DNA of 63,714 nucleotides. Source: Gammaproteobacteria bacterium (GTDB lineage Bacteria > Pseudomonadota > Gammaproteobacteria > Steroidobacterales > PWYM01). Numbering within the stretch: position 1 is the stretch's first letter; each line of letters opens with the position of its first letter. This document shows, piece after piece, positions 454 through 62,630 of the stretch. The notes beneath the pieces are model-generated. The model had not been told where the DNA came from, did not search any database, and was given only the letters and a program-made list of their open reading frames with translations. The position numbers were made by a program, and so were the translations under genes. The stretch covers positions 1-63,714 of the forward strand of contig JBGTIC010000046.1 in NCBI GenBank assembly GCA_041745895.1, given 5' to 3'.

Positions 454-1359
454 TCAATACAGCATCTTTTCGACAGGCAGCACCAGCATGGAGCTTGCAC
501 CGGCAAGTTTCAGCTCTTCGAGCGTTTCCCAGAAGACATTCTCGCGGCACACGGCATGGATGGCCACCTTGTCGTCGCGACCTTCAAGGGGCATCACCGT
601 GGGCGCCTCGGCGCCCGGGAGCAGGCGGGTGATCTCGGCCAGCGCGGAGCGGGGCGCGTGCAGCATGATGTATTTACTCTCGCTGACCTGAATGACGCCA
701 TCGATGCGCTTCTTGATGCGCTCCATCCACTCGGCTTTCTCAGCGGGTACGGCTTTGGGCGTCTGGATCAGCGATGAGACGCTCGAAAGAATCGTGCCAG
801 CCTCGCGCAGGTGATTGGCGCGCAGCGTATTGCCGCTGGACACCAGATCGCAGATGACATCGGCGCGGCCCAGTCGCGGCGCAATCTCCACCGCCCCGGA
901 GAACTCGACCACCGAGGCGGTCAGCCCCTGCTGGCGCAGGTAGTCACGCACGATATGCGGGTAGCTCGTGGCGATACGCAGGCCTTCCAGATCAGCGGCG
1001 CCGGCGAACTGCATGTCCTCGGGCACCGCGAAAGACAGCCGGCAGTGACCGAAGTCAAGTTCGCGCACCAGCACGAAGGGTGCCTCGTCGCCCTCGGAAA
1101 GAAACTGCAGTCGCCGTTCCTCCAGCACGTTCGCCCCGACGATTCCCAAGTCACAGACATCCTCGCGCACCAGCGCCGGAATATCGTCATCGCGCACCAG
1201 CAGCACGTCGATGGGCAGGTTCTCACCAAAGCAGATCAACTGGTCGCGGCCCTTGCTGTATTTCAGGCCGCAGCGCGAGAGCAGATCCAGCGAATGATCG
1301 GTGAGTCTGCCTGACTTCTGCACGGCAATCTTGATGCGGTTGGCGGGTTCTGGCGTCAT
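454..1359 (-). CDS. hisG: ATP phosphoribosyltransferase, long form
   Basis: 301-aa ORF with IKIAVQKSGRLTDHSLDLLSRCGL... and a length typical of long-form HisG. It is followed by hisD. Its start codon overlaps the stop of the upstream gene (ATGA). Confidence 0.93.
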   Translation of the reverse strand: MTPEPANRIKIAVQKSGRLTDHSLDLLSRCGLKYSKGRDQLICFGENLPIDVLLVRDDDIPALVREDVCDLGIVGANVLEERRLQFLSEGDEAPFVLVRELDFGHCRLSFAVPEDMQFAGAADLEGLRIATSYPHIVRDYLRQQGLTASVVEFSGAVEIAPRLGRADVICDLVSSGNTLRANHLREAGTILSSVSSLIQTPKAVPAEKAEWMERIKKRIDGVIQVSESKYIMLHAPRSALAEITRLLPGAEAPTVMPLEGRDDKVAIHAVCRENVFWETLEELKLAGASSMLVLPVEKMLY

Positions 1360-1685
1360 GTCGGTGTCCGTTGTGGTTTCGCATCGTGCGTGCGAGTAAG
1401 GGCAAGTTCGTAGCCGCCGTTACCCGACGACAGAAACCTGGCGATGCGTCCGACGGTGGTGACACTCACGCCGGTCAGCTCGTTGATACGCCGATAGGCC
1501 AGACCCTGATTCAGCAACGGCACCACCGACCAGCGATCGGCCATCGCCTGAAGTTCGGCCGGCGTGAGCAGGTCGCGGAAGAATCGTCGGCACTCGTCAG
1601 AGTCGCGCAGGCACAGCACCGCATGGTAGAGCGCCTGTTCTGCCAGCGCGTCGCGTTCCGGAGAGGGGCTGCGGCGGTCTTTCAT
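1356..1685 (-). CDS. YerC/YecD family TrpR-like DNA-binding protein
   Basis: 109-aa ORF. LLTPAELQAMADRWSVVPLLNQGLAYRRINELTGVSVTTVGRIARFL matches the Trp-repressor-like HTH of YerC/YecD proteins. It is translationally coupled to hisG. Confidence 0.8.
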   Translation of the reverse strand: MKDRRSPSPERDALAEQALYHAVLCLRDSDECRRFFRDLLTPAELQAMADRWSVVPLLNQGLAYRRINELTGVSVTTVGRIARFLSSGNGGYELALTRTHDAKPQRTPT

Positions 1686-1814: not shown

Positions 1815-1940
1815 TGCTCATCGAGACCGGCTGAGGGACAGGCCCTTAGACGCCGGGGCAACCATCGGGCGCGCAAGTCCCCGACAAGGTGCCAACTCCT
1901 GCGCGGCCGCCTCTGGGCAGAGCCTGCGAGAGATGAGTCT
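1815..1940 (+). promoter_or_regulatory. SAM-I (S-box) riboswitch aptamer
   Basis: CTCATCGAGACCGGCTGAGGGACAGGCCC...GGGGCAACC...CAAGGTGCCAACTCC...GCGAGAGATGAG carries the conserved S-box elements: P1 CTCATC/GATGAG, GAGGGA, GGCCC, GCAACC, AAGGTGCCAA and AGAGATGAG. It lies directly upstream of methionine biosynthesis genes. Confidence 0.85.
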
Positions 1941-2079: not shown

Positions 2080-3276
2080 ATGTCCAAGCCAGTCAATCCC
2101 CAGACGCGCGCCGTGCGTGCCGCGCTGGAGTCTGATCAGCAGCACGGGGCGGTGGTACCGCCACTGTTCCTGTCCAGCAACTACACCTTCGCCGGTTTTG
2201 CCGACAAGCGTCACTACGATTACACGCGCAGCGGCAATCCCACCCGCGATGCGCTCGCCGGTGCGTTGTGCGAACTCGAGCAGGGCCATGGGTGTGTGGT
2301 CACCAGTTCGGGGATGGCAGCAATTCACCTGGTATGTCTGCTGCTGAACGCCGATGACCTTCTGGTGGCACCGCATGATTGCTATGGCGGCTCCTACCGC
2401 TTGTTTGCGAACCTTGCTGCGCGCGGTGCCTTTCGCGTCCGATTCATCGACCAGACGGATCCGGCAGCCGTTACGGCGGCGTTGGCCGAGAAACCGCGGC
2501 TGGTCTGGGTCGAGACACCGAGCAATCCGTTGCTGCGCATCGTCGATCTTGCGGCCATGGCGGAGCAGGCCCACGCCATCGGCGCACTTGTCGCTGCGGA
2601 CAATACCTTTCTGTCACCCGCGTTGCAGCAGCCGCTGCGTCTGGGGGCCGATATCGTCGTGCACTCGACCACGAAGTATCTCAACGGCCACAGTGACGTG
2701 GTCGGCGGTGCCGTCATTTCGGCCGATGAGGCCGTGCATGCGCAGATTGCCGACTGGGCCAACATTATCGGGGTGACGGGTGCGCCGTTCGACAGCTACA
2801 TGACGCTGCGCGGCATCCGTACGCTGTTCCCGCGCATGCGCCAGCACCAGGAGAATGCCTCGCGCGTGGCAGACGCACTGGTGAAACATCCCGCCGTTAC
2901 CCGGGTGTATTTTCCGGGTCTGGCGGACCATCCGGGCCACGACATCGCCCGGCGGCAGCAGTCGGGCTTCGGTGGCATGGTCAGTTTCGAGATGGCCGGC
3001 GGCGAGGCGCAGCTGCGTTGCGTGCTCGAGGGCCTCCAGCATTTCTCCTTGGCCGAGTCGCTCGGCGGCGTGGAAAGTCTCGTGTGCCATCCGGCGACGA
3101 TGACCCATGCCCCGATGGAACCCGACGCGCGGCGTCGGGCGGGCATCTTCGATTCGCTGATTCGTCTGTCGCTGGGCGTCGAAGTTGCGGAGGATCTCGT
3201 GGCTGATCTATGCGCGGCGCTGGATCGTGCGTCTACCATGGATTCCGGCCGCGCATCGGCTGCCGCGGCCGGTTGA
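2080..3276 (+). CDS. metB: cystathionine gamma-synthase (O-acylhomoserine thiol-lyase), PLP-dependent
   Basis: 398-aa ORF collinear with E. coli MetB as I recall it. Shared blocks: VVPPLFLSSNY, LVAPHDCYGGSYRLF, NTFLSPALQQPL, HSTTKYLNGHSDVVGG (with the PLP lysine) and LAESLGGVESL. A GAGGAG SD lies 11 nt upstream. Confidence 0.9.
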   Translation: MSKPVNPQTRAVRAALESDQQHGAVVPPLFLSSNYTFAGFADKRHYDYTRSGNPTRDALAGALCELEQGHGCVVTSSGMAAIHLVCLLLNADDLLVAPHDCYGGSYRLFANLAARGAFRVRFIDQTDPAAVTAALAEKPRLVWVETPSNPLLRIVDLAAMAEQAHAIGALVAADNTFLSPALQQPLRLGADIVVHSTTKYLNGHSDVVGGAVISADEAVHAQIADWANIIGVTGAPFDSYMTLRGIRTLFPRMRQHQENASRVADALVKHPAVTRVYFPGLADHPGHDIARRQQSGFGGMVSFEMAGGEAQLRCVLEGLQHFSLAESLGGVESLVCHPATMTHAPMEPDARRRAGIFDSLIRLSLGVEVAEDLVADLCAALDRASTMDSGRASAAAAG

Positions 3277-11458: not shown

Positions 11459-11490
11459 AAAAAAACCCCGCATCGGAAGCCGGTGCGGGG
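11459..11490 (-). terminator. rho-independent attenuator terminator of the ilvA-leu operon leader
   Basis: The minus strand reads CCCCGCACCGGCTTCCGATGCGGGG followed by TTTTTTT. It lies 33 nt upstream of the ilvA ATG and 25 nt downstream of the leader peptide stop. Confidence 0.8.
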
Positions 11491-11515
11491 TCTGTGTTCA
11501 CGTCCAGGGTTTTGC

Positions 11516-11626
11516 TCAGCCGGACAGCCCGCACCTCTTGGATCCAAGAAGGAGAAGAAGTACGTGCAGGAACCGACCGTGCGGCACGACCGTATCGGGT
11601 CCGGCATTGTGAAACGCGCTGATCAT
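11516..11626 (-). CDS. leucine-rich leader peptide (36 aa) of the ilvA-leuA-ilvE-leuCDB operon
   Basis: The minus-strand ATG at 11626 gives MISAFHNAGPDTVVPHGRFLHVLLLLLGSKRCGLSG*. The run CTG CAC GTA CTT CTT CTC CTT CTT uses CTT/CTC Leu codons, which look uncommon in this GC-rich DNA. Alternative 1:2, 2:3 and 3:4 pairings can be drawn. Confidence 0.65.
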   Translation of the reverse strand: MISAFHNAGPDTVVPHGRFLHVLLLLLGSKRCGLSG

Positions 11627-11636
11627 TGGGCGATAG

Positions 11637-11650
11637 TGTTGTATACAACA
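11637..11650. promoter_or_regulatory. perfect 14-bp palindrome TGTTGTATACAACA (window-wide TGTATACA motif, site G)
   Basis: Read directly from the sequence. It lies 11 nt upstream of the leader-peptide ATG, inside the spacer of a possible promoter (TTGACA at 11661-11656, CACTAT at 11638-11633, minus strand). Confidence 0.5.
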
Positions 11651-11681
11651 GGCGATGTCAACCGCTTTGTCTTCCGCGGGT

Positions 11682-15566: not shown

Positions 15567-15578
15567 AATTGTATACAG
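15567..15578. promoter_or_regulatory. AATTGTATACAG, copy of the TGTATACA palindrome (site F)
   Basis: Read directly from the sequence. It lies in the 551-bp non-coding gap between the acyl-CoA dehydrogenase gene and the TonB2-type cluster. Confidence 0.35.
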
Positions 15579-24552: not shown

Positions 24553-24599
24553 TCAGCATCTCTCCTGGTCGCAGACCCGCGGGCCAGCAATATGGCGCT

Positions 24600-25232
24600 C
24601 TAGTTCGGCAGTGAAGTCAGGTAGGCTTCAACTTCGGCCAACGACCTGACCTCAGCATACTTGGCTTGCAGATCGAACAGGTTGGCCTCGTGAGGCCCCG
24701 GATCGCGGTCGCCTACGGCATCGCGCACGACCACAGGTATGAAGCCGTATTGCATGGCATCTACGGTGGACGCACGGATACACCCCGAGGTCGACAATCC
24801 TGCAATCAGCAGCGTATCCACCCCCAGCGCGGTCAGGGTCGATGCCAGACTGGTGCCGAAAAACGCACTTGCATATTGCTTGGTGATCACCGGCTCGGAT
24901 GCCACCGGTTCCAGCCCCTGTGCGAAGGCGCCCATGGGCGAACCGCGTTCGAAGGCACGCAGTGCGGCAACCTTCTTGAAGAAAACACCGCCGTCCACGC
25001 CGCCTGGCGTGAACGACACGTTCGTGTGCAAAACCGGGATGCCGGCGCTGCGCGCGGCACCCAGCAGGCGCACGCAATGCGCCAGGGCCTCTTCGACGCC
25101 CGCGTAGAGCGGCGAGTCGCGATCCAGGTAGGCGCGCACGAAATCGATGATCACCAGCGCCGGCGTGGTACCGAGCGCCAGCGCGCCACCGAAGCCGGCG
25201 GCCTGATAGTCGGCTTGCAGGTCCTTCGCCAT
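24600..25232 (-). CDS. isochorismatase-family (cysteine) hydrolase, N-carbamoylsarcosine-amidase-like
   Basis: 210-aa ORF with ALVIIDFVRAY (catalytic Asp), ITKQYASAFFGT (Lys) and IAGLSTSGCIRASTVDA (nucleophile Cys). Confidence 0.8.
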   Translation of the reverse strand: MAKDLQADYQAAGFGGALALGTTPALVIIDFVRAYLDRDSPLYAGVEEALAHCVRLLGAARSAGIPVLHTNVSFTPGGVDGGVFFKKVAALRAFERGSPMGAFAQGLEPVASEPVITKQYASAFFGTSLASTLTALGVDTLLIAGLSTSGCIRASTVDAMQYGFIPVVVRDAVGDRDPGPHEANLFDLQAKYAEVRSLAEVEAYLTSLPN

Positions 25233-25267
25233 AGTTTGTCCTCTTGTTCGGGCAGCGTGCCGGGCGA

Positions 25268-26482
25268 CTAGATGACGCCCTGTGCGTGAAGTTCGGCCAT
25301 GCGCTCGTCATCCAGCCCGAGCAGACCTTTGTACACCTCCTCATTATGCTGGCCCAGCTCGGGACCTGCTGAGCGTACTGCACCGGGTGTCAGGGACAGC
25401 TTGGGCGCGACGTTCTGCATCTTGATCTTGCCAAGCTCCGGATGCATGACCTCGACGATGGCCTTGCGCGCCTCGAAGTGGGGGTCCAGCAGCATCTCCG
25501 GTGCGCGGTAGATCCCACCCGATGGGATGCCGTGCTGGTCCATGAGGGCTACCAGCTCGTCCTGAGTCACTGTACGGGTCCACTCCGAGATCAGGTCGTC
25601 GAGTTCCTGCTGGTGACGGCCACGCGCGGTGTGGGTGCTGTAGCGCGGATCTTCAGCAAGTTCCGGGCGCTGCATCGCTGCCGTCAGCCGCTTGAACACC
25701 GTGTCCTGATTGGCGGCAATCAGCTGCAGCTTCTCGTCTTTCGTCGGGTAGACGTTGGACGGGGCGACATTGGGCAGAATCGAGCCCTGCCGCTCGCGGA
25801 TGTATCCCACAACATCGTATTCCGTGATCAGCGATTCCATCATGTTGAGCACGGCCTCATAGATGGCCGAATCGACCATCTGTCCCTTGCCGGTACGTTC
25901 GCGGTAGTGCAGTGCCGACAGCGCGCCCACGCAGGCAAACGTCGCCGCCAGAGAATCACCGATACTGATGCCCATGCGGCTGGGCGGCGTGCGCGGATCA
26001 CCGCAGACATAGCGCAGCCCGCCCATCGACTCGCCGACCGCACCGAAGCCTGCGCGCTTGGCGTAGGGGCCGGTCTGACCGAAGCCGGAAACCCGGATCA
26101 TGATCAGCCGCGGGTTGATCTTCGCGAGTTCCTCATAACCAAGTTGCCATTTTTCCATCGTGCCGGGACGGAAATTCTCCAGCAGGAAATCGGCATCCCT
26201 GACGAGTTCCCGAACGAGCGCCTGGCCGGCCGCTTCGCGCAGATTCAGGGTGACCGACTTCTTGTTGCGGGCGATCACGGGCCACCACAATGACTTGCCG
26301 TGCGCCTTTTCCTGTCCCCACTCGCGCATCGGATCGCCCTTGCCCGGCGGCTCGACCTTGATGACCTCGGCGCCGAAATCTCCGAGCAGTTGTCCGCAGA
26401 ATGGACCTGCAAGCAGGGTCCCCATTTCGATGACGCGCAGGCCCGAGAGGGGGCCGCCGGTGTTGTCCGCGTTACTTCCCAT
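25268..26482 (-). CDS. family III CoA-transferase (CaiB/BaiF family)
   Basis: ORF 25268..26590 trimmed to MGSNADNTGGPLSGLRVIEMGTLLAGPFCGQLLGDFGAEVIKVEPP..., followed by ENFRPGTMEKW. Confidence 0.88.
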   Translation of the reverse strand: MGSNADNTGGPLSGLRVIEMGTLLAGPFCGQLLGDFGAEVIKVEPPGKGDPMREWGQEKAHGKSLWWPVIARNKKSVTLNLREAAGQALVRELVRDADFLLENFRPGTMEKWQLGYEELAKINPRLIMIRVSGFGQTGPYAKRAGFGAVGESMGGLRYVCGDPRTPPSRMGISIGDSLAATFACVGALSALHYRERTGKGQMVDSAIYEAVLNMMESLITEYDVVGYIRERQGSILPNVAPSNVYPTKDEKLQLIAANQDTVFKRLTAAMQRPELAEDPRYSTHTARGRHQQELDDLISEWTRTVTQDELVALMDQHGIPSGGIYRAPEMLLDPHFEARKAIVEVMHPELGKIKMQNVAPKLSLTPGAVRSAGPELGQHNEEVYKGLLGLDDERMAELHAQGVI

Positions 26483-26571
26483 GCACTTGTACCTGTAGTT
26501 TTCTGGATTCGAGGGAGAGCAGGCGCCCTTTTGGATCAGCTTATCCCGACGGATCTGAGGCGGGATCGACG

Positions 26572-26584
26572 TAGTGTATACAAT
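26572..26584. promoter_or_regulatory. TAGTGTATACAAT, TGTATACA palindrome site A
   Basis: Read directly from the sequence, about 95 bp upstream of the caiB-like start codon. Confidence 0.5.
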
Positions 26585-26634
26585 CGGCATGTCAAACTGG
26601 TCAAGGCTGGACCGGCTTGGGCGGATTCGCCGTG

Positions 26635-26648
26635 AGTTGTATACAATT
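26635..26648. promoter_or_regulatory. AGTTGTATACAATT, TGTATACA palindrome site B (best copy)
   Basis: Read directly from the sequence. AATTGTATACAACT/AGTTGTATACAATT is a near-perfect 14-bp palindrome about 75 bp upstream of the HMG-CoA-lyase-like start. Confidence 0.5.
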
Positions 26649-26659
26649 GCCGGACGAAT

Positions 26660-26671
26660 CCAGTATACAAT
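26660..26671. promoter_or_regulatory. CCAGTATACAAT, TGTATACA-like palindrome site C
   Basis: Read directly from the sequence. Its dyad is 24 bp from site B and about 50 bp upstream of the HMG-CoA-lyase-like start. Confidence 0.45.
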
Positions 26672-26719
26672 CGGGGACTTGAGACGCGACGCTCAGTCGC
26701 GCAGAAATGGTGGGGTTTG

Positions 26720-27634
26720 ATGCAGAACATCGAGATCGTCGAGGTTGGTCCGCGCGACGGCCTGCAGGGTGAACCCGAGGTGCTCGGCACCGCAATGAAG
26801 GTCGAGTTCATCAATCGCGCCGTTGCGGCCGGCATTCGCCGCTTGGAAGTCGCGAGTTTCGTGCATCCCAAGAAAGTGCCGCAGATGGCTGATGCGGAAG
26901 CCGTCCTGGCCGGTCTGCCGCGATGCGATGACGTGATCTACGTCGGCCTGGTGCTCAATCGCCGTGGCTTCGATCGCGCGCTGGCCGCCGGGGTGGACGA
27001 AATCGGCATGCCGGTCGTCGCCACCGATACCTACAATCTTCGCAACCAGGGTGTGCCCACGGAGCAGTCGATCAATGACTGGCTGGAGATCGCCGAGGCG
27101 GCCCACGAGGCCGGAATCCGTTGCAGCGTGACGATCTCTTCTGCGTTTGGCTGTCCTTTCGAGGGAGAGGTCGCCCTGGCTCGGGTGCTGGACATCGCCC
27201 GCCGGGTCGCTGCAGGCCGGCCGGTAGAGATCGCGCTGGCCGACAGCATCGGGGTGGGCGTGCCCTCGCAGGTCGCCGAGATGATCGCGGCCGTCCGGCA
27301 GCTGCTCCCGGACATGCCACTGCGCTGCCATTTCCACAACACGCGCAACACTGGACTTGCGAATGCCTACGCAGCAGTGCAGGCCGGGGTCTCTTCGCTG
27401 GATGCAAGTATCGGGGGTATCGGCGGATGTCCGTTCGCCCCGGCGGCCACCGGCAACATTCCGACCGACGATCTGGTTTACATGCTCAACCGATCAGGTA
27501 TAAACACGGGTGTGGATCTGGCTCGAATCATCGAGACCAGCGAGTGGCTGGCCGCCGCCCTTGGGCGCAATGTGCCGGCCATGCTCCCGAAGGCAGGCAG
27601 CTTTCCCGAGATCGCCTCCGGCAAAGCAGCCTGA
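26720..27634 (+). CDS. hydroxymethylglutaryl-CoA lyase family (HMGL-like) enzyme
   Basis: ORF 26717..27634 (TTG) trimmed to ATG 26720. Motifs: IVEVGPRDGLQ, CHFHNTRNTGLANAYAAV and GGIGGCPFAP. Confidence 0.88.
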   Translation: MQNIEIVEVGPRDGLQGEPEVLGTAMKVEFINRAVAAGIRRLEVASFVHPKKVPQMADAEAVLAGLPRCDDVIYVGLVLNRRGFDRALAAGVDEIGMPVVATDTYNLRNQGVPTEQSINDWLEIAEAAHEAGIRCSVTISSAFGCPFEGEVALARVLDIARRVAAGRPVEIALADSIGVGVPSQVAEMIAAVRQLLPDMPLRCHFHNTRNTGLANAYAAVQAGVSSLDASIGGIGGCPFAPAATGNIPTDDLVYMLNRSGINTGVDLARIIETSEWLAAALGRNVPAMLPKAGSFPEIASGKAA

Positions 27635-27752
27635 CGCATGAGCAATGATCGTTGCGTGGTGCGTCAGGCGACGTCCCACAATGCGCTGACCAGAAAACCA
27701 ATTCAGGCAGGCCTTGCGGTCTGCGGCAACAACCAGCCAATCAGGTGAACAG

Positions 27753-29948
27753 ATGAGCTATCGCTTGGGAGTAGACGTAGGGGGAACATTCACGGACCTT
27801 CTATTGGTGAACGAAAAATCCGGGGACATCTTCACGGCCAAAGTGCCGAGCACACCACAGGACTCGTCGATCGGCGTCCTGAACGGGATCGAAAGGGTCT
27901 GCAACAACGCCGGCATCGATCCCGCAGAAATCACCCACGTGATGCACGGCACCACGGTGGCAACGAACACGATGCTCGAAGGCAATGGTGCCACCGTCGG
28001 CCTGGTGACAACGAAGGGCTATCGCCAGGTTCTGCAGATCGCGCGCTCGTATGTGCCGGGCGGATTGGGCGGCTGGGTGATTTACAACAAGAGCAACCCT
28101 ATTGCCCCGCTGGCGCTGACGATCGAAGCCGAAGAGCGCATGAGTGCCAAGGGCGAAGTCGTGCGCAAGCTCGATGAGGCGCAGATCGAGGCTGAGCTGA
28201 TCCGGCTGCGCGACAAGGGCATCGAGGCACTCACAGTTTCCCTGATCAACTCCTACGCCAACCCGGCGAACGAAAAGAAGATCAAGCGCATCGCCACGCG
28301 GGTGATGCCGGGCATTCCAGTGTCGCTGTCATCCGAGGTGGTGCCGGAGATGCAGGAGTACGAGCGAACCGTCACGACGGTGGCAAACTCCTTCGTGCGC
28401 CCGAAGGTCCAGACCTATATTCGCAACCTTCATCGTGAACTCACCAGCAAGATGAAGAACGTGCAGCTGCATGTGCTGCGCTCGGATGGCGGACTCGCGG
28501 CGGCGAAAGCTGCCGAAGAAATGCCTGTCAACCTGCTGATGAGCGGCCCGGCCGGCGGCGTTGCCGGGGCCATCTGGGTGGCCAGGCAGGCAGGGTTCCC
28601 GAACCTGCTGACCTTCGACATGGGGGGCACCTCCACGGACGTGTGCCTGGTCCAGAACGGCAAGGCGCAACTGCGTCGCGAGACGACCGTGGGAGATGTC
28701 ACGGTGCGCGCCTCGTCGGTGGACGTGCGCACGGTCGGTGCGGGTGGCGGCTCGATCGCCAAGGTGCCGGAACTCACCAAAGCGCTGCGCGTGGGACCCG
28801 AGAGCGCCGGTGCGGCACCCGGACCGGCAGCCTACGGCCAGGGCGGTGAGGCCCCGACGGTGACGGACGCGAACGTCACGCTGGGGTATCTGCCAGCCGA
28901 GGTTCGCCTTGGCGGCGATATGACCATTCGCAAGGACCTGGCTGAAAAAGCGGTGCAGAGCATCGCCGATTCGCTGGATCTTACGCTGCACGAGGCGGCA
29001 TCGGGCATCGTCGATATCGTCAACGAAAACATGTTCGGTGCCCTGCGACTGGTGTCGGTTGAACAGGGCTATGATCCACGCGACTTCGCATTGATCGCCT
29101 TCGGCGGGGCAGGTCCGCTGCACGCCAACGCGCTCGGACGCCTGATGGGCTCGTGGCCGGTGATCATCCCGCCTGGCCCAGGAGTACTGTGCGCTTATGG
29201 CGATGCCACCACGCGTGTTCGCGACGAGGCTTCGCGCACGTTCATTCGCAAATTCACCGATACCAATGTCGACGAGGTGGTCAAGACTTTCGAGGATCTC
29301 GCCGACACCGCCGCAAAGACGCTGGATAACGAAGGCGTTGCGCGCAAGGATCAGTCGGTCAGCTACCAGGTGGATGTGCGCTACCACGGCCAGGGTCTGC
29401 AACTGACGGTCGATGTTGATCTCAAGGATCTGCGCAAGAACGGTCTTGCGGCCATTGGCGGGCCATTCGACGAGATGCATCGCCAGCTGTTCACCTTTGC
29501 ACTGGAACTCGACAAGGAAGTGGTCAACCTGCGTGCCGTCGTCCAGGGCAAGCCCACCAAGGTCAAGGCACCGGAGGTCAAGCGTGGCGGTCCGGATCCG
29601 AAGGCTGCGGTCGTCGCCGAGCACAGGATCTACGCCGACGGCAAGATGCGCAAGGCGAAGATCTACGATCGCGCCAAGCTCAAGGCCGGTAACAAGGTGG
29701 CCGGCCCGGCGGTGGTCATGGAGATGGACTCCACCACGGTGATCCTGCCTGGTCACACGGGTGTTGTGGATCGTTTCGGCAACATCCTGATCAATCCGGA
29801 CAAGGGTGCCAGCAACACCAGGACCCGGCAGAGCGCAGCGAGCAAGCCGGTCAAGAGCCTCAGCAAGGCGAGCGCCAAAACCGCTGCGGGGAAAGGGAAG
29901 AAAAAGGCGACGAAGAAGAAGGCAGCGAAGAAGCGGGCCGCGGCCTGA
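27753..29948 (+). CDS. hydantoinase A / oxoprolinase family ATP-dependent enzyme, A-type subunit, with Lys/Ala-rich C-terminal tail
   Basis: ORF 27714..29948 trimmed to MSYRLGVDVGGTFTDLLLV... (ASKHA-type ATPase motif); TFDMGGTSTDV is also present. The last ~47 aa are KPVKSLSKASAKTAAGKGKKKATKKKAAKKRAAA-like. Confidence 0.85.
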   Translation: MSYRLGVDVGGTFTDLLLVNEKSGDIFTAKVPSTPQDSSIGVLNGIERVCNNAGIDPAEITHVMHGTTVATNTMLEGNGATVGLVTTKGYRQVLQIARSYVPGGLGGWVIYNKSNPIAPLALTIEAEERMSAKGEVVRKLDEAQIEAELIRLRDKGIEALTVSLINSYANPANEKKIKRIATRVMPGIPVSLSSEVVPEMQEYERTVTTVANSFVRPKVQTYIRNLHRELTSKMKNVQLHVLRSDGGLAAAKAAEEMPVNLLMSGPAGGVAGAIWVARQAGFPNLLTFDMGGTSTDVCLVQNGKAQLRRETTVGDVTVRASSVDVRTVGAGGGSIAKVPELTKALRVGPESAGAAPGPAAYGQGGEAPTVTDANVTLGYLPAEVRLGGDMTIRKDLAEKAVQSIADSLDLTLHEAASGIVDIVNENMFGALRLVSVEQGYDPRDFALIAFGGAGPLHANALGRLMGSWPVIIPPGPGVLCAYGDATTRVRDEASRTFIRKFTDTNVDEVVKTFEDLADTAAKTLDNEGVARKDQSVSYQVDVRYHGQGLQLTVDVDLKDLRKNGLAAIGGPFDEMHRQLFTFALELDKEVVNLRAVVQGKPTKVKAPEVKRGGPDPKAAVVAEHRIYADGKMRKAKIYDRAKLKAGNKVAGPAVVMEMDSTTVILPGHTGVVDRFGNILINPDKGASNTRTRQSAASKPVKSLSKASAKTAAGKGKKKATKKKAAKKRAAA

Positions 29949-30016
29949 CGCGCCAGTGACGGTCGCGTCCGTGAATGGCGCGAGACACCTTTTCGAATTT
30001 TGCAGAGAGTACCGAC

Positions 30017-31924
30017 ATGCCAGCAACCATCATTGAAACAAACAAGAAGGCCTTCAAGCGCAAGAAGGTCGACCCGATCACCCTCGACATTGTCGAGAAC
30101 GCAATGCTCAATGCGCGTTATGAAATGGATGCTGTGCTTTTTCGCACGGCAATGTCACCGGGCATTCGCGAACAGCATGACGAATTCCCGATGATCGCAA
30201 ACCGCGACGGCAAGATGGTCGTCGGCCAGTTCGGCTCTTTTATCCACGGCTTTTTGAAGGGGTTCAACGACACCATCGAGGAAGGCGACATTTTCCTCAC
30301 CTCGGACCCGTATCTGACCAACGGCGCGATCAGCCACGCCAATGACTGGTTGCTGCTCAAGCCGATCTTCAAGGAGGGTCGCATCATTGCGTGGGCCGCG
30401 ATGTTCGGACACATGACCGATATCGGCGGCAAGGTCCCGGGCAGCCTGCCAACCGATGCACGACAGATCTTCGAGGAGGGCGTGGTGATTCCGCCGCTGA
30501 AGATCTACCGCAAGGGCGAATTGCAGGAAGACGTACTCAAGCTGATTCTGCACAACTGCCGCCTGCCACACTGGAACTTGAGCGACTTCAACGCTATCGT
30601 GGCGGCGATCCGTACGGCCGAGAAACGTTGTATCGAGCTCGCAAGACGCTTCGGTGACGATGTCTACTATTCGGCGCTGGAAGAGCTGCTCGATCGCAAC
30701 TATCGCGCGATGCGCAAGCTCATTCAGACCACCGTTCCGGAGACCAAGCAGTACTTCGAAGATTACATCTGCGATGACGGGATGGGCATGGGCCCTTACA
30801 AGATCCGCTGTGCGATGTGGCGCGAAGGCGAGAAAGTCATCTTCGATTTTACCGGCACCGATCCGCAATCCGTGGGTCCCGTGAACTTCTTCCTCAACGA
30901 GGAGATGTTCAAGATGTTCTGTGGCGTCTACATGATCATGGTCTTCGACCCTCAGATCATGTTCAACGACGGCTTCTACGACCTGATGGAAGTGCATATT
31001 CCTGAGGGCACATTGCTCAAGCCCAAGAAGCCCGCAGCACTGTCGTGTCGGACTCATGCGCTGGGCCGTATCTTCGATGTACTCGGTGGCCTGCTCGGCC
31101 AGGGCAGCCCGGATTTCCTTTGCGCAGCCGGTTTCTCCGACAGCCCCCACTTCATGTATTCGGGTTACGACAAGCGTGGCCAGTGGTATCAGCTCTACCA
31201 GATCGGTTTTGGTGGCATACCAGGCAAGCCCTCAGGCGATGGCCCGGATGGTCATTCCCTGTGGCCGAGCTTCACCAACGTGCCCAACGAGTTTCTCGAA
31301 AGCTACTTCCCGCTGCGTATCGAGGCCTATGAGACCATTCCTGACAGTGGTGGGCCCGGTCTGCACAGAGGCGGCAACGCGCTGCGGGTGGGCTACTGCT
31401 TTCTCGAGCCCGGTGAAATCTCGATCCACGATGACCGCTGGCTGACCTACCCATGGGGCGTCACCGGCGGCCTGCCCGGTCAGCGAAGCACGAAGCTGTT
31501 GGTGCGCACGGACGGCTCTCAGGAACTCATGCCCTCCAAATGCGATCGAGTCGTCGTGAACAGCGGGGACATCCTTTACTTCGATACCTGGGGTGGCGGC
31601 GGCTGGGGTGACCCGCTGAAGCGTCCGGTCGAGCGCGTGGAATTCGACGTCGAGGCAGGGCTTGTGACCCACGATGGTGCACGGCGCTACGGTGTGGTGC
31701 TCGACACTGACGGCAAGACTGATGAGGCGGCGACCAAAGAGCTGCGTGCCAAGATGGCCAAGGAGCGTGGCAAGACCAAGCTGTTCGACTACGGTGGCAC
31801 GATCGAGGAGCTCAAGGCGCGCTGCAAGGCCGAGACAGGGCTTGAGCCGCCTGCCAAGCCGGAGTTCCCGCGCTGGCTGAAGGCAGCCGGCCAGGCCGCG
31901 CCAAAAATGAAGCTGGCAAGCTAG
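30017..31924 (+). CDS. hydantoinase B / oxoprolinase family protein, B-type subunit
   Basis: ORF 29975..31924 trimmed to MPATIIETNKKAFKRKKVDPITLDIVENAM.... Other blocks: DIFLTSDPYLTNGAISHANDW and GGGGWGDPLKRP. Confidence 0.85.
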   Translation: MPATIIETNKKAFKRKKVDPITLDIVENAMLNARYEMDAVLFRTAMSPGIREQHDEFPMIANRDGKMVVGQFGSFIHGFLKGFNDTIEEGDIFLTSDPYLTNGAISHANDWLLLKPIFKEGRIIAWAAMFGHMTDIGGKVPGSLPTDARQIFEEGVVIPPLKIYRKGELQEDVLKLILHNCRLPHWNLSDFNAIVAAIRTAEKRCIELARRFGDDVYYSALEELLDRNYRAMRKLIQTTVPETKQYFEDYICDDGMGMGPYKIRCAMWREGEKVIFDFTGTDPQSVGPVNFFLNEEMFKMFCGVYMIMVFDPQIMFNDGFYDLMEVHIPEGTLLKPKKPAALSCRTHALGRIFDVLGGLLGQGSPDFLCAAGFSDSPHFMYSGYDKRGQWYQLYQIGFGGIPGKPSGDGPDGHSLWPSFTNVPNEFLESYFPLRIEAYETIPDSGGPGLHRGGNALRVGYCFLEPGEISIHDDRWLTYPWGVTGGLPGQRSTKLLVRTDGSQELMPSKCDRVVVNSGDILYFDTWGGGGWGDPLKRPVERVEFDVEAGLVTHDGARRYGVVLDTDGKTDEAATKELRAKMAKERGKTKLFDYGGTIEELKARCKAETGLEPPAKPEFPRWLKAAGQAAPKMKLAS

Positions 31925-31996: not shown

Positions 31997-32659
31997 TCAG
32001 CCCAGGGGTTTGACCGTGCCGAGAAAGGCAGCAAGCAAAAGCGCGACGTACAAGGCAACCACGACTCGGATGGTTGCGTCGATGCCTGAGGAAATACGGG
32101 CCTCGAGCTGTTCACTGCTGCCGCGTGCGGCAAGCTCGGCGAAGCCTGCGCCTACGGGCTTGAACGCATAATCGATGCCCAGCGCGAGCAGGCAGATGAC
32201 TGCATACAGCGCGAGCTTGGCACTCAGCCATGGCGCTGACGTGAGTGCATCCGTCCACACGCCAAGCGCACTGGCAGTGAACAGCATTGTTGCCAACATA
32301 AGCAGCCATGCGGATAGCAGGCGGTGCAGCAGCGGTGACGCCGCAGGATTGCGTGCCAGCCCGATCACAAGCGCCAGCCAGAAGCCTGCGACGGCCCAGG
32401 TGATGGCGGGCAGCAGGGCGGAGGGATGTAGCAGGCCCATGTTCCACGCCAGCTGCACACCGACGGGCAACATCAGTACGAACGCGATGCGCGGAGTGAA
32501 GTCGATCTTCATTGCCATTTCCAGCAGCAGGCTGCGCTGCGAGAAGGCAAGGGAGGGATCTTTTGCACGCCGCGCCAGCACGAAAACCCCGAGGTCGGCG
32601 CCCAGCCAATAGACGAACAGCAGGATATGGACGAAAACCCAGAATTCGTGAATCTGCAT
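31997..32659 (-). CDS. 6-TM membrane protein of unrecognised family, paralogue X1
   Basis: ORF 31997..32698 trimmed to MQIHEFWVFVHILLFVYWLGADLGVF... (GGGAGG SD 9 nt upstream). It shares motifs with 43669..44340 and 56728..57399. Confidence 0.7.
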   Translation of the reverse strand: MQIHEFWVFVHILLFVYWLGADLGVFVLARRAKDPSLAFSQRSLLLEMAMKIDFTPRIAFVLMLPVGVQLAWNMGLLHPSALLPAITWAVAGFWLALVIGLARNPAASPLLHRLLSAWLLMLATMLFTASALGVWTDALTSAPWLSAKLALYAVICLLALGIDYAFKPVGAGFAELAARGSSEQLEARISSGIDATIRVVVALYVALLLAAFLGTVKPLG

Positions 32660-32688: not shown

Positions 32689-33387
32689 ATGGTTTCATAC
32701 TGCCCTGCGAGCGCTCAAGTGAAGGCCGTAGAAAAGGCCTACAACGCCGTTCGGCGCGGCATCCTGGGTGGTCGGTTTGCGGCCGGTAGCCGGCTGACCG
32801 AGCATGAGGTCTCGGCGCTCGCTGGGGTCAGTCGCACGCCGGTACGCGAGGCCCTCAGACGTCTGCAAAGTGAAGGCCTGCTCGAGTTCATTCCCAATCA
32901 CGGAGCGGTGGTCGCCAACTGGAATGAAGCCGAGGTCGACGACATCTTCGAGCTTCGCGCGATGCTGGAAGCCTACGCAGTCGAGCGCGCTACGCGGCAC
33001 GCCAGCGAGGCAGACCTGCGCGAACTCCACGAGCTGGCTGAAGCCCAACTGCGCGCAGCCCATGCGCGCGGGGAGAAGAAGCTCGAAGACATTGCTGAGC
33101 TGAACAGCCGATTCCACGAGCGCCTGCAGAAAGCAGCCAACAGTGAGCGTCTGCAACGCATGCTGGTGGCCTTGATCGAGGTGCCGCTGGTTGCGCAGAC
33201 CTTCCGAAAATACACTGACGAACAACTGCTGCGCAGTTCACAGCATCACCTGGAAATCGTGCTGGCAATGGAAGCCGGGGACGCCGATGGAGCGGCCTCG
33301 ATCATGCGTGCGCACGTGCTGGCCGCTCGAACAGCCTTCTACCGCGCTACCGGCCGCGAGAGCCCGACGCGCGCGGCCGCATCCTGA
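32689..33387 (+). CDS. GntR family transcriptional regulator, FadR/FCD subfamily
   Basis: 232-aa ORF. The winged HTH is LTEHEVSALAGVSRTPVREALRRLQSEGLL, followed by an all-helical FCD-type C-terminal domain. The start could also be GTG 32719. Confidence 0.85.
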   Translation: MVSYCPASAQVKAVEKAYNAVRRGILGGRFAAGSRLTEHEVSALAGVSRTPVREALRRLQSEGLLEFIPNHGAVVANWNEAEVDDIFELRAMLEAYAVERATRHASEADLRELHELAEAQLRAAHARGEKKLEDIAELNSRFHERLQKAANSERLQRMLVALIEVPLVAQTFRKYTDEQLLRSSQHHLEIVLAMEAGDADGAASIMRAHVLAARTAFYRATGRESPTRAAAS

Positions 33388-33396
33388 ATCGAGAGT

Positions 33397-34206
33397 TCAG
33401 CGCGCCGCAACAGGCTGTGTGTTGTGATACTCGGCCCGCTGGCGTGCAAATTCGCCGCCGATCTGATCGGCAGCACGTCGCATTCTCGGCACAAAGCGCT
33501 CGACTGCCGCCGGCTGCGGCAGCGCCGTACTGGAAAAGCGCACTGTCAACGCAGCCATGAGTCTGCCTTCGGACGTGATGGGGACTGAGAAGGCGGTCAG
33601 ATCGGATACACGACGCGGTCTGGTGTGGATCGCAAAACCACGCTCGCGGGTTTCCAGCAACAGTTTCTGTACCTGAACACGGTTGCGCGCGAGCTGGTCG
33701 GCGACGTTCTTCGAGCGTGCCAGCATGTCGATGAGCGCCTCGCGCTGGGTCTTGTCACAGAACGCGAGGTAGACCAGGCCAGAGGCGCTGGCCAGCATCG
33801 GTACCCGATAACCCGGGCCGTAGCGCTCAACTGCCAGCGGGCTCTGGTGGTCCGTGGTCTCGCGCACCAGCATGCTGGTACCCGAAAGCGTGGCAATGGA
33901 CACCGGCCACACAATCTCGCGGCACAGCTCATAGATGAAGGGTTTGGCTGTCTGGGTGATCCACGCTTCGTCATCGAACCCGTCCGACAGGCCGCGCACC
34001 ATGATGGTCAACCGATACTTGTCGTCACTCTCGGAGCGATACGCGTAGCCAGCGTGACACAGGGTTTCGAGAATGCGATAGGTGGTCGTGCGCGGCAGGT
34101 CGATCTCGTGAGCAACCTCGGAGACGGTCACGCCGTCTTTCAGATTGAGAATCGTCAGGGCATCCAGACCCCTGATGAGGGCGCGGATAGGTCGGGTAGA
34201 AGTCAT
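33397..34206 (-). CDS. IclR family transcriptional regulator
   Basis: ORF 33397..34533 trimmed to MTSTRPIRALIRGLDALTILN...VTVSEVAHEIDLPRTTTYRILETL, followed by an IclR effector domain. Confidence 0.85.
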   Translation of the reverse strand: MTSTRPIRALIRGLDALTILNLKDGVTVSEVAHEIDLPRTTTYRILETLCHAGYAYRSESDDKYRLTIMVRGLSDGFDDEAWITQTAKPFIYELCREIVWPVSIATLSGTSMLVRETTDHQSPLAVERYGPGYRVPMLASASGLVYLAFCDKTQREALIDMLARSKNVADQLARNRVQVQKLLLETRERGFAIHTRPRRVSDLTAFSVPITSEGRLMAALTVRFSSTALPQPAAVERFVPRMRRAADQIGGEFARQRAEYHNTQPVAAR

Positions 34207-41227: not shown

Positions 41228-41239
41228 TGTGTATACAAT
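41228..41239. promoter_or_regulatory. TGTGTATACAAT, TGTATACA palindrome site D
   Basis: Read directly from the sequence, 33 bp upstream of the dctQ start and about 135 bp upstream of the ALDH start. Confidence 0.5.
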
Positions 41240-60654: not shown

Positions 60655-61131
60655 TCAGTAGCCCTGCCAGCTGTCGGAGATTTTCTCTTCGTCAATGAGC
60701 GTGCGCATGTGAATGCGCCCGCTCTTGATCCACTGCCAGACCCGACTGCGGTAACCTCCGCAGTCGCTCATCTGGATCATCTCGTAGAGATACAGGTCGG
60801 ATTCACCCTTGCGCGTCCAGTTGAGCATCAGCGTGCGGTTGAAATCATCCAGAGGCACTTCCGCCGCCCAGCCATAGATGAGGTCGTTGTCGAACCACAT
60901 CCTGCCAGCCCGGTAGGTGGCCGGAAAATCGCGGGCCTCGGTGCGCCCGTCGGACCAGGTGTAATGGTTGGTCTGGTGGTAGGGGTGGGGGCCGTCGTCG
61001 GGAAACCGGCAGATCAGCCGCGAACGGTGCTCGTCGATCTTGTTGCCCTGCGCATCGGTGTGACGATAGAAACCGTCCCAGACGCCCTCGTTCCTGGCCA
61101 GCAGAGGCATGGCCACCTTGATCTCCGACAT
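60655..61131 (-). CDS. hypothetical soluble protein (158 aa), family not recognised with confidence
   Basis: ORF 60655..61422 trimmed to MSEIKVAMPLLARNEGVWDGFYRHTD.... An AGGAGG SD precedes ATG 61131. Confidence 0.6.
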   Translation of the reverse strand: MSEIKVAMPLLARNEGVWDGFYRHTDAQGNKIDEHRSRLICRFPDDGPHPYHQTNHYTWSDGRTEARDFPATYRAGRMWFDNDLIYGWAAEVPLDDFNRTLMLNWTRKGESDLYLYEMIQMSDCGGYRSRVWQWIKSGRIHMRTLIDEEKISDSWQGY

Positions 61132-61210: not shown

Positions 61211-61222
61211 ATTGTATACAAG
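61211..61222. promoter_or_regulatory. ATTGTATACAAG, TGTATACA palindrome site E
   Basis: Read directly from the sequence, 80 bp upstream of the 60655..61131 gene and about 137 bp upstream of the alaA-like gene. Confidence 0.5.
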
Positions 61223-61358: not shown

Positions 61359-62630
61359 ATGACCATCGAGGCTTCTGCTGCGGATGCGACTGCCGGCCCC
61401 GGACAGGCCGCGGTGGCGACACCGGTGAAGACTGCTGCGGGTCTGCAGCATGTGCGTTACGAGATTCGTGGTGTGCTTGCCCGCCGGGCGCTGGAACTAG
61501 AGAAGCTCGGCTACGAGATCACCTCGCTGAACATCGGCAATCCCGGGGTATACGGCTTTCGCACCCCGGAGACGATGCGCCTGGCAATGATCGAGAACCT
61601 GCAGATCAGCGAAGGCTATTGTCACCAGAAGGGCATCTTTCCTGCCCGCGAAGCGGTAGTGATGCAACAGCAGACGCGCGGGGTCATGACAGCGAGTGCC
61701 GATTCGGTGTTTATCGGCAACGGGGTCTCCGAACTCATAGACCTGTGTTTGCGCGCGCTGCTCGACCCGGGCGACGAGGTGCTGATCCCCAGCCCCGATT
61801 ATCCACTGTGGACAGCAGCCACCGTACTCAATGGGGGCAAGGCACTGCACTATCCCTGTCCACCGGAACGCAACTTCCAGCCCGACCTTGCGGCCATCGA
61901 GGCGATGATCACCCCGCGCACGCGGGCGATTGTCGTCATCAACCCCAACAACCCGACAGGGGCTGTGTATTCGCTCGAAATCCTGAAGGGTATCGCCGAG
62001 TTGGCGGAACGCCATCGACTGGTCGTGCTCTGCGATGAGATCTACGACCACATGACCTACGATGGCGCGAAGTTCGTGCCGATGGCCACGCTGGTCCACG
62101 ACACGCTCTGCGCGACCCTCAGCGGCCTGTCCAAGGTCTACCGCGCCTGCGGCTATCGTGTCGGCTGGGCGTCTTTCAGCGGCGACCTGGAAAATGCGCG
62201 AGCCTATCTGAACGCACTCGAACTGCTGGCGTCACTTCGACTGTGCAGCAATGTGCCCGGCCAGTGGGCAGTGCAGACCGCGTTGGGCGGGTACCAGAGC
62301 ATTCAGGATCTGACCTCTCCCGGCGGCCGCCTTTACGAATCCCGACAGGCCGTGCTCGACTGCGTGGCAGCCAGCCCGTTCCTGCGGCTGGTCGCCCCGC
62401 AAGGCGCGATGTATGCCTTCGTGCGCGTGGACAAAGAGCGCCTGCCCCAGTTCAACGATCATCGTTTCGCCATGGATCTGCTGGAAAACCGTCACGTGCT
62501 GGTGGCTCCGGGGACCAGTTTCAATGTGCCTTATGACGATCACTTCCGCATCACGACCTTGCCGTCCCCGGCCCTGATCGAGGAGGTGTTCACTCGCATC
62601 AACGAGGTGCTTGACAGTCATGCGAAGTAG
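61359..62630 (+). CDS. alaA: alanine-synthesising / glutamate-pyruvate aminotransferase (class I PLP aminotransferase)
   Basis: ORF 61212..62630 trimmed to ATG 61359. It is collinear with E. coli AlaA as I recall it (YEIRG, LNIGNPG, IGNGVSELI, PDYPLWTAA, INPNNPTGAVYS, SGLSKVYRACGYRVGW, LRLCSNVPGQWAVQTALGGYQSI). Confidence 0.85.
   Translation: MTIEASAADATAGPGQAAVATPVKTAAGLQHVRYEIRGVLARRALELEKLGYEITSLNIGNPGVYGFRTPETMRLAMIENLQISEGYCHQKGIFPAREAVVMQQQTRGVMTASADSVFIGNGVSELIDLCLRALLDPGDEVLIPSPDYPLWTAATVLNGGKALHYPCPPERNFQPDLAAIEAMITPRTRAIVVINPNNPTGAVYSLEILKGIAELAERHRLVVLCDEIYDHMTYDGAKFVPMATLVHDTLCATLSGLSKVYRACGYRVGWASFSGDLENARAYLNALELLASLRLCSNVPGQWAVQTALGGYQSIQDLTSPGGRLYESRQAVLDCVAASPFLRLVAPQGAMYAFVRVDKERLPQFNDHRFAMDLLENRHVLVAPGTSFNVPYDDHFRITTLPSPALIEEVFTRINEVLDSHAK

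Follow-up and report, generated by a model that had tools for sequence, protein, structure and literature searches.

Escherichia coli DgoR (D-galactonate) is an FCD-type GntR repressor with TTGTA/TACAA-like half-sites and promoter-overlapping operators, and repressors of the FCD family were regarded as dimers until Atu1419. Electrophoretic mobility shift assays (EMSA) and crystal structures have shown that Atu1419 of Agrobacterium fabrum binds 5'-ATGTATACAT-3' with no spacer, and Arg45 reads the essential G (G3) of the half-site (PMC7797058). The Atu1419 palindromes, two per region, overlap the −10 boxes or sit between the −35 and −10 elements, and the protein is a tetramer that can loop the DNA between two palindromes (PMC7797058). 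Here we describe a set of short palindromes with the core TGTATACA in a 63,714-nt stretch of DNA from a Gammaproteobacteria bacterium (GenBank assembly GCA_041745895.1, contig JBGTIC010000046.1, positions 1 to 63,714 of the forward strand), hereafter called the window, to which an earlier note made from the sequence alone had drawn attention. These palindromes are a real, conserved operator set, and the comparative evidence makes it probable that they are the operators of an Atu1419/VanR-like, metal-containing FCD-type GntR repressor encoded at 32719..33387 of the same window.

The operator core, the zero-spacer geometry and the two-operator layout in the window are those of Atu1419 (VanR group; PDB codes: 6z74, 6za3). 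The TGTATACA core is identical in the two systems, two operators lie in each control region, where they overlap the −10 element or the −35/−10 spacer, and both regulators combine a GntR-type winged helix-turn-helix (wHTH) domain and an FCD domain with Asn/His3 metal ligands and identical Glu, Arg, Thr and Arg contacts to the DNA. Atu1419 is also the best PDB fold match of the model of the window regulator, although the two sequences are only 28–30% identical. The two systems differ in the flanks of the core, which are T/A in the window (TTGTATACAA, often ATTGTATACA on one side) and A/T in Atu1419, in the operator spacing, which is strongly conserved at 63–65 bp in the window family as compared with 190 and 109 bp in Atu1419, and in their targets, a lactam/coenzyme A (CoA)-ester cluster and other genes in the window as against hydroxycinnamate/tetrahydrofolate genes in Agrobacterium. 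The earlier note had proposed DgoR as the precedent, but the DgoR consensus TTGTA[G/C]TACA[A/T] has a 1-bp spacer whereas the window sites have none, and the spacer-free ATGTATACAT of Atu1419 fits better (PMC7797058). No DgoR-like protein is present among the PDB sequence matches of the window regulator. The best of these matches, PmiR of Pseudomonas aeruginosa (PDB code: 7xp0), has the same two-domain architecture but is reported to recognise very different DNA (PMC9728974); PmiR senses 2-methylisocitrate and gives no sign of paired operators with a fixed spacing. In PmiR and other metal-binding FCD regulators, such as TM0439 and McbR/YncC, the FCD domain has an effector pocket that binds carboxylates. 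The E. coli and Vibrio FadR proteins, after which the FadR subfamily is named, resemble the window regulator in that an arginine in the recognition helix of the GntR-type wHTH domain reads a G in each half-site of the short palindrome TGGTNxACCA, but FadR has another C-terminal domain, which binds acyl-CoA, and an operator with a spacer, and its similarity to the window regulator is much weaker (E about 5e-4, template modelling (TM) score about 0.5).

Six exact copies of TGTATACA are present in the window, starting at positions 11640, 15570, 26575, 26638, 41230 and 61213, and a seventh site at 26662–26669 is AGTATACA, which matches TGTATACA in seven of its eight positions. The coordinates and sequences of these six exact copies and one variant were all given correctly in the earlier note, and its estimate that base composition alone predicts well under one hit agrees with an expected count of 0.09 obtained from dinucleotide-preserving shuffles of the whole window, none of 100 of which reaches six. 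That all sites are non-coding, as the note had also claimed, is borne out by curated gene coordinates drawn from Pfam, NCBIfam and public gene calls, which place all six exact sites in 4,573 bp of non-coding DNA (7% of the window, GC 0.61). A first-order Markov model of this non-coding DNA predicts 0.0125 sites, and six or more were obtained in none of 2000 simulations (P = 0), excluding a chance or compositional origin of the six copies. The top three 8-mers of the non-coding DNA (GTATACAA, TGTATACA and ATTGTATA) are all derived from the motif, and TGTATACA is the commonest palindromic 8-mer with two G+C in the window. Origins of the motif as a restriction-modification target or as a mobile repeat were discounted, as the flanks of the sites are dissimilar and the motif is enriched rather than depleted. 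The window, a complete contig of a Woeseiaceae-like gammaproteobacterium, does not correspond to a known plasmid, as a megablast comparison of positions 24000–30000 with plasmids gave two short, weak matches only. In the literature, a search for TTGTATACAA turned up nothing but sequences used in cloning (Gateway att), none of them an operator from bacteria.

TGTA directly abuts TACA in all of the sites, and the 1-base spacer of the DgoR type is not found. Zero-spacer palindromes with the TGTATACA core number six exact copies in the window and more than 40 in relatives. Related loci totalling 1.86 Mb contain 54 exact sites, 39 of which were called non-coding by a crude open reading frame (ORF) caller, and 11 of the 15 'coding' calls proved to be intergenic on inspection by hand; since this classifier over-extends ORFs and mislabelled these 11 known intergenic sites, the curated coordinates were used instead. 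The base flanking the half-site is T (TTGTA) in 55 of 86 cases and A in five, so that the A1/T10 flanks of the Atu1419-type ATGTATACAT 10-mer are not those of the present sites, which represent an operator variant. AT is found on exactly one flank in 36 of 43 sites and on both flanks in none of the 43, and this one-sided AT may reflect overlapping −10 boxes or asymmetric recognition.

Three of the seven sites lie in a 237-bp divergent intergenic region (26483..26719), hereafter called the hub, between the family III CoA-transferase (caiB-like) gene (25268..26482, minus strand) and the 3-hydroxy-3-methylglutaryl (HMG)-CoA-lyase-like (HMGL) gene (26720..27634, plus strand). The dyad centres are 63 and 24 bp apart and lie 54, 78 and 96 bp from the nearest start codons. 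Putative operator A, TGTATACA at 26575..26582, is proximal to the CoA-transferase gene; a conserved −35-like TTGACC precedes it by 16 nt, so that the site covers the −10 region of the caiB-like promoter. This −35-like hexamer on the minus strand (26599..26604, GGTCAA on the plus strand) is placed between operator A and putative operator B, TGTATACA at 26638..26645 within the full 12-mer GTTGTATACAAT, which is 63 bp from operator A and reads TACAAT toward the HMGL gene. Putative operator C, the variant AGTATACA at 26662..26669, is 24 bp from operator B and nearest to the HMGL start codon; it is seen in the closest relatives only, and its equivalents are TGTATACC in locus L002 and TGTATACT in L004. 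The AT flank is on the same side in operators A and B, so that each reads TGTATACAAT in the direction of HMGL. Operator A and TTGAC(C/G) are kept at a fixed distance in L001–L006, L041, L061, L074 and L077, and TTGACC at 14 nt from ATTGTATACA is kept at 71–97% caiB identity in unconserved surroundings. A strict sigma-70 consensus scan of positions 26400–26800 found no promoter, and operator A contains no unambiguous −10 hexamer: TATACA needs an 18-nt spacer and is without the −7 T, and an extended −10 is off by one base.

The regulator gene, which the earlier note had placed at 32689..33387 as an FCD/FadR-type GntR gene, does encode such a protein, with its start now refined from that of the longest ORF at 32689 to 32719 according to the public gene call (32719..33387, plus strand, 222 aa). 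A GntR-type wHTH domain (PF00392, E = 8.1e-17) occupies residues 15–75 and an FCD domain (PF07729, E = 1.6e-20) residues 85–210, and the closest solved structures by sequence are PmiR (7xp0, E = 3.5e-18) and Atu1419 (6z74, E = 1e-17). The recognition-helix segment SRTPVREAL is identical to that of Atu1419 in the alignment. The DNA-contact residues of Atu1419, Glu34, Arg45, Thr46 and Arg49, are all conserved and correspond to E27, R38, T39 and R42, which are invariant in an alignment of 35 orthologs, as are N128, H132, H176 and H198, corresponding to the metal ligands Asn137, His141, His192 and His214 of Atu1419, which are likewise all conserved. An AlphaFold model built on the ortholog alignment has a mean predicted local distance difference test (pLDDT) score of 88.9 and an all-helical C-terminal domain, and a Foldseek comparison of this model with the PDB places Atu1419 chains at ranks 1–8 (E about 1e-10, TM score 0.67–0.75). 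The number of helices in the FCD domain of the model is ambiguous, fitting either six (VanR) or seven (FadR).

A one-genome-per-species scan with the CoA-transferase yielded 80 loci, the closest genome record being a metagenome-assembled genome with 97% CoA-transferase identity, and the divergent CoA-transferase/HMGL–hydantoinase layout is kept in most of them. Exact TGTATACA pairs are present in the caiB/HMGL intergenic region of L001–L006, L041, L061, L074, L076 and L077, and the rearranged locus L072 has an exact pair upstream of HMGL; most of the other scanned loci have no exact pair. Almost nothing else in the region is conserved among the pair loci except the −35-like TTGAC(C/G). Footprinting, as proposed in the earlier note, shows the hub pair to be conserved in relatives, almost only in those carrying a GntR ortholog. 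Every locus in which tblastn finds a GntR ortholog with at least 50% identity has the pair (L002, L004, L005, L041 (partial), L061, L072 and L076). In the 47 loci covered over 19 kb or more, scored for a GntR ortholog of at least 45% identity and without correction for phylogeny, six have both the ortholog and the pair, one has the ortholog alone, two have the pair alone and 38 have neither (Fisher p = 1.7e-5). Thus, the pair is found in six of the seven GntR-positive loci, the seventh (L057) having a variant pair, and in two of the 40 GntR-negative loci. The IclR-family regulator, which the earlier note had put forward for comparison, behaves unlike GntR, showing no association with the pair (p = 0.27), which is missing from 19 of the 21 well-covered loci that carry IclR; the numerous loci with the IclR gene alone lack it. 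Retrieval from the side of the regulator, by a protein search and then collection of the loci of four orthologs at 76%, 60%, 57% and 56% identity, places all four genes in the same cluster, and in each of the four loci the CoA-transferase/HMGL intergenic region contains an exact pair, with spacings of 64, 64, 108 and 64 bp, respectively.

The operator differs where the regulator is more diverged. Two loci, L044 (1242, 1305) and L057 (5021, 5084), carry ATTGCATGCAAT and ATTGCATACGAT exactly 63 bp apart, and their GntR proteins are 46–48% identical to that of the window and encoded divergently from HMGL; alphaproteobacterial loci with GntR proteins of 37–44% identity carry a single TTnGTATACCAAA site. 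The operator sequence changes together with the more diverged regulator, and this covariation, along with the co-occurrence, supports the claim of the earlier note that the local GntR protein regulates the sites. Other loci of the same cluster carry other elements: CTTGCAG-N16-TATTGTATAgca...TTACAA is found in the IclR-linked loci (TTGTATA-N13-TATACAA in L026), AATGTATATTAATATAACATT in the CoA-transferase/HMGL region of L052, L060, L065–67 and L079, and TATTCTATACAATGT in the same region of L043, L053 and related loci. The half-sites in L007–L040 and other loci curiously resemble the GntR operator. The presence of such lineage-specific elements at one and the same cluster suggests repeated swaps of regulator together with operator.

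The centre-to-centre distance of the pair is 63–65 bp in the window, L001–L006, L041, L061, L077, L150 and L152 and 64 bp in L157, and spacing in the range of 63–65 bp is found in 12 loci over 56–97% regulator identity, with exceptions of 96, 108, 134 and 249 bp. Since 64 bp corresponds to 6.1 turns of B-DNA, both dyads face the same side of the DNA. The 63-bp spacing survives the operator switch in L044 and L057 and a different gene order, which argues for a constraint imposed by a protein rather than by promoter geometry alone, and the fixed spacing suggests cooperative binding of two dimers.

The remaining four exact copies lie outside the hub. The first forms a perfect 12-bp palindrome, GTTGTATACAAC (11638..11649), a putative operator in the spacer of the leu-operon promoter (minus strand; TTGACA 11661..11656, 17 nt, CACTAT 11638..11633), and the ATG of the leu leader peptide is about 14 nt from the edge of the 11640 site. 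This ATG follows the predicted −10 by about 7 nt, and the leader transcript is possibly nearly leaderless. A leucine attenuator read from the sequence (11459..11626, minus strand) lies downstream of the site. It comprises the coding sequence of a 36-aa leader peptide (11626..11516), which includes five Leu codons in a row, followed by an intrinsic terminator (11490..11459), and it precedes a threonine dehydratase–leuA–ilvE–leuC–leuD–leuB operon. The palindrome is identical in L155, a relative whose threonine dehydratase falls in the same 90%-identity cluster and which keeps the leader frame, the Leu run and the terminator, with part of the leader-peptide coding sequence diverged; the core of the leu promoter is almost unchanged there too, making this weaker evidence for selection on the site. 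The palindrome is absent from L081 and L139 (65% identity), which keep the promoter and the attenuator. A metagenome scan with the threonine dehydratase returned mostly paralogous contexts, in which the gene directly follows ilvC and which are useless for the leu footprint, and found the attenuator kept only in L081 and L139.

The second outlying copy is a putative operator reading ATTGTATACA on the plus strand (15570..15577), 14 nt downstream of a −35-like TTGTTA and about 460 bp upstream of a DUF3450–ExbB–ExbB–(ExbD)–TonB (TonB2-type) operon that starts at 16033. The distances of 30–140 bp from start codons given in the earlier note hold for most of the sites, the 15570 site being the exception. 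This site and its −35 are kept in L002 (80% transferase identity) and L004 in a region that is otherwise poorly conserved. Conservation of the interval 15578–16032 in L002 is poor, and no Rfam family matches it at the gathering threshold; it may be a long 5' leader or contain an unannotated feature.

The third copy (41230..41237) is a putative operator in the divergent region between an aldehyde dehydrogenase–ATP-binding cassette (ABC) permease–glutathione S-transferase (GST) operon (41094, minus strand) and the tripartite ATP-independent periplasmic (TRAP) transporter genes dctQM (41290, plus strand), with its dyad centre 56 bp from dctQ and 139 bp from the start of the dehydrogenase gene. 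The site occupies a −35 position, with a perfect TATAAT 18 nt away toward the dehydrogenase, and reads TACAAT toward dctQ. It is kept in L142/L143 (90% dehydrogenase identity) and L146 (83%), where the flanks have diverged and a TATAAT or TATGAT box again lies 18 nt away, and this conservation places the operator at the −35 of the dehydrogenase promoter. No equivalent is present in L144/L145, where the dehydrogenase gene is in a different context. An exact-protein look-up with the Redoxin gene returned the window's own contig only. The fourth copy (61213..61220) is a putative operator in the divergent region between a gene for a conserved 158-aa protein without matches in Pfam or NCBIfam (60655..61131, minus strand) and an alanine-aminotransferase-like gene (61359..62630, plus strand), and the nearest starts are 85 and 142 bp from its dyad centre. 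The site is kept with diverged flanks in L147 (91% identity) and absent from L148 and L149 (81–83%), in which the intergenic region is 120 bp shorter. The pairing of the 158-aa and alanine-aminotransferase-like genes is kept in L147–L149. Altogether, relatives keep the sites of four of the five regions while the flanks have diverged, and the leu promoter, the fifth region, is a weaker test. The multi-operon regulon of catabolic and transport operons proposed in the earlier note would include such operons and extend, in addition, to the leucine-biosynthesis promoter and the alanine-aminotransferase gene.

Further sites are present in relatives. Additional copies lie directly upstream of the regulator gene itself in L061 and L154, and the TonB-dependent receptor gene that adjoins the cluster in L152 (1165/1239) and L157 (1090/1164) carries a separate operator pair just upstream, with a spacing of 74 bp and one mismatch in one of the two sites. 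These receptor pairs provide a rationale for the window site at the TonB2 energising complex. A single site (9612) lies upstream of an unannotated 842-aa ORF in L041, and L150 carries TGTATACAAT plus TGTATAGAAT upstream of dctQ, though without the dehydrogenase gene.

We infer DNA binding, repression, cooperativity, an effector and shared control of the outlying sites as follows. One dimer would bind to each palindrome, with the recognition-helix arginine of SRTPVREAL reading the G of each TGTA half-site. Two operators on the same DNA face, six turns apart, would bracket the −35 of the CoA-transferase promoter at the hub, operator A covering the −10 of this promoter and operators B and C covering TACAAT boxes toward the HMGL/hydantoinase operon. 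The two dimers would bind cooperatively as a dimer of dimers, in a manner similar to the Atu1419 tetramer, thereby shutting both divergent operons, and the degenerate operator C would add occupancy over the HMGL-proximal TACAAT. The DNA would be freed when a small molecule, probably a carboxylate formed as an intermediate in the lactam/CoA-ester pathway, binds as effector to the metal site of the FCD domain. The single operators would put four more promoters, those of leu, TonB2, aldehyde dehydrogenase/TRAP and alanine aminotransferase, under the same control; their positions over the −35 of the dehydrogenase promoter, in the spacer of the leu promoter and over the −10 region of the TonB2 promoter fit repression.

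Several observations weigh against this model. No TGTATACA is found at the promoter of the window regulator itself, and a membrane-protein gene of opposite orientation separates the regulator gene from the hydantoinase operon, indicating that the two are not co-transcribed, unlike in L072, L152 and L157. In L074 and L077 the pair is present, yet no GntR gene lies within 10 kb. The support comes from comparative genomics, with the co-occurrence uncorrected for shared ancestry. A length of 63 bp is short for a DNA loop, and a symmetric dimer alone leaves the AT on one flank in 36 of 43 sites unexplained. The leu and aminotransferase sites are confined to relatives of about 90% identity or closer and are absent at 65% and at 81–83%, respectively, so that their function is less secure, and there is no obvious physiological logic in co-repressing leucine biosynthesis and a catabolic cluster; citramalate or HMG-type CoA esters as a link between the cluster and the leu operon are speculation only. 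A paralogous regulator elsewhere in the genome could bind to the outlying sites.

This last point leads to the strongest alternative, namely that the local GntR protein acts at the hub pair, whereas the four outlying sites are recognised by another protein with matching specificity, either an FCD paralog or a global regulator, whose gene lies beyond the window. FCD regulators are often present as several paralogs, the sequence in view is 64 kb of a genome, and the outlying sites are at housekeeping or biosynthetic genes with no evident link to the lactam/CoA-ester cluster, with the leu and aminotransferase sites restricted as described above. However, the 8-bp core is identical in all of these sites and the T/A flank preference is shared, domain and family scans of the window proteins detect no second GntR-family gene, and the regulon of the ortholog in relatives already takes in a TonB-dependent receptor and dctQM, so that the window's TonB2 and TRAP sites fit readily into the same regulon. 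We therefore consider the involvement of a second protein unlikely. The simplest reading is that the same GntR protein would serve all four outlying sites. The hub, the transporter sites and the regulator-gene sites would then be old members of the regulon and the leu and aminotransferase sites recent additions in the window lineage, with an apparent recent expansion to the leu, aminotransferase and TonB2 promoters. A more far-reaching proposal, that one oligomer obligately binds both of the six-turn-spaced operators over an unusually short loop and that a dedicated catabolic repressor has been recruited to the leu (already attenuated), alanine aminotransferase and TonB2 promoters, turning a local regulon recently into a semi-global one, is put forward tentatively, as we lean somewhat against it.

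It is much less probable that the sites are promoter elements of RNA polymerase, −10 boxes of the form TACAAT or TATACA that resemble one another as strong AT-rich cores. Operator A and the 15570 site do lie at a fixed 16–18 nt from conserved −35-like hexamers, the pair reads TGTATACAAT toward HMGL and the 41230 site does so toward dctQ, and relatives without GntR have TATTGT or TATTCT −10-like boxes at the same position. A −10 box, however, needs no symmetry, whereas the perfect 8-bp palindrome is present in more than 40 sites, and its position varies from the −10 (caiB-like) and the spacer (leu) to the −35 (aldehyde dehydrogenase). Moreover, the hub contains no promoter according to the strict sigma-70 scan, orthologous promoters in genomes without GntR lack the motif, and ATTGCATGCAAT takes its place where GntR has diverged, with the 63-bp spacing retained across this replacement. 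The canonical hexamer pair and gene-tied orientation that mark a sigma-70 −10 box, which requires no dyad, do not account for the set of sites. The earlier note had regarded a demonstration that the sites are merely −10 boxes as fatal to its proposal; the sites do overlap −10, −35 or spacer positions, but this is how such repressors act.

Finally, binding by the IclR-family regulator encoded at 33397..34206 (minus strand), next to the GntR gene and an ancestral neighbour of the cluster in many loci, is rejected for want of association with the pair and given the different conserved element in IclR-linked loci, and an origin of the motif as a compositional or chance feature, to be expected of AT-rich words gathering in the intergenic DNA of a GC-rich genome, or as the remnant of a repeat element conflicts with the Markov expectation of 0.0125 against six and with site flanks too dissimilar for copies of a mobile repeat, so that we give hardly any credence to either.

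The genes around the hub suggest a pathway. The caiB-like CoA-transferase (PF02515, E = 6e-128) falls below every NCBIfam equivalog cut-off; its gene heads the leftward operon, in which an isochorismatase-like hydrolase gene and hypothetical genes come next. The rightward operon (26720..31924) begins with the HMGL gene, assigned by Pfam, and continues with genes for hydantoinase/oxoprolinase A (27714..29948, plus strand) and B (29975..31924, plus strand), assigned by Pfam and NCBIfam; the nearest named relatives of these two proteins in NCBIfam are caprolactamase alpha and beta, below cut-off. Since a caprolactamase-like ATP-dependent lactamase, an isochorismatase-type amidohydrolase, a CoA-transferase and an HMG-CoA-lyase-like enzyme are encoded together, the cluster suggests that a cyclic amide may be catabolised to a carboxylate, which would then be activated and cleaved as a CoA ester. 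The membrane-protein gene between the hydantoinase operon and the GntR gene (31997..32659, minus strand) has no Pfam match and starts about 60 bp from the start of the regulator gene, an arrangement kept in L004 and L150. Apart from the GntR and IclR genes, a Trp-repressor-like gene (1356..1685) is the only regulator gene detected in the window. An S-adenosylmethionine (SAM) riboswitch (1815–1939, plus strand; RF00162, 73.8 bits, E = 2e-15) is present upstream of a gene for a Cys/Met-metabolism pyridoxal phosphate (PLP) enzyme (2080..3276).

These results provide a concrete and testable regulator–operator assignment for a widespread, uncharacterised gene cluster of Woeseiaceae-like sediment bacteria and many other Proteobacteria, and the effector of the regulator would point to the substrate of the cluster. 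The set of loci presents one catabolic cluster that swaps its regulators and operators, GntR, IclR and others, between lineages. The conserved 63–65 bp spacing makes these loci a well-defined natural system for studying cooperative binding or DNA looping by FCD repressors. No new class of mechanism is involved; the added interest lies in the conserved six-turn spacing and in the apparent recent expansion of the regulon.

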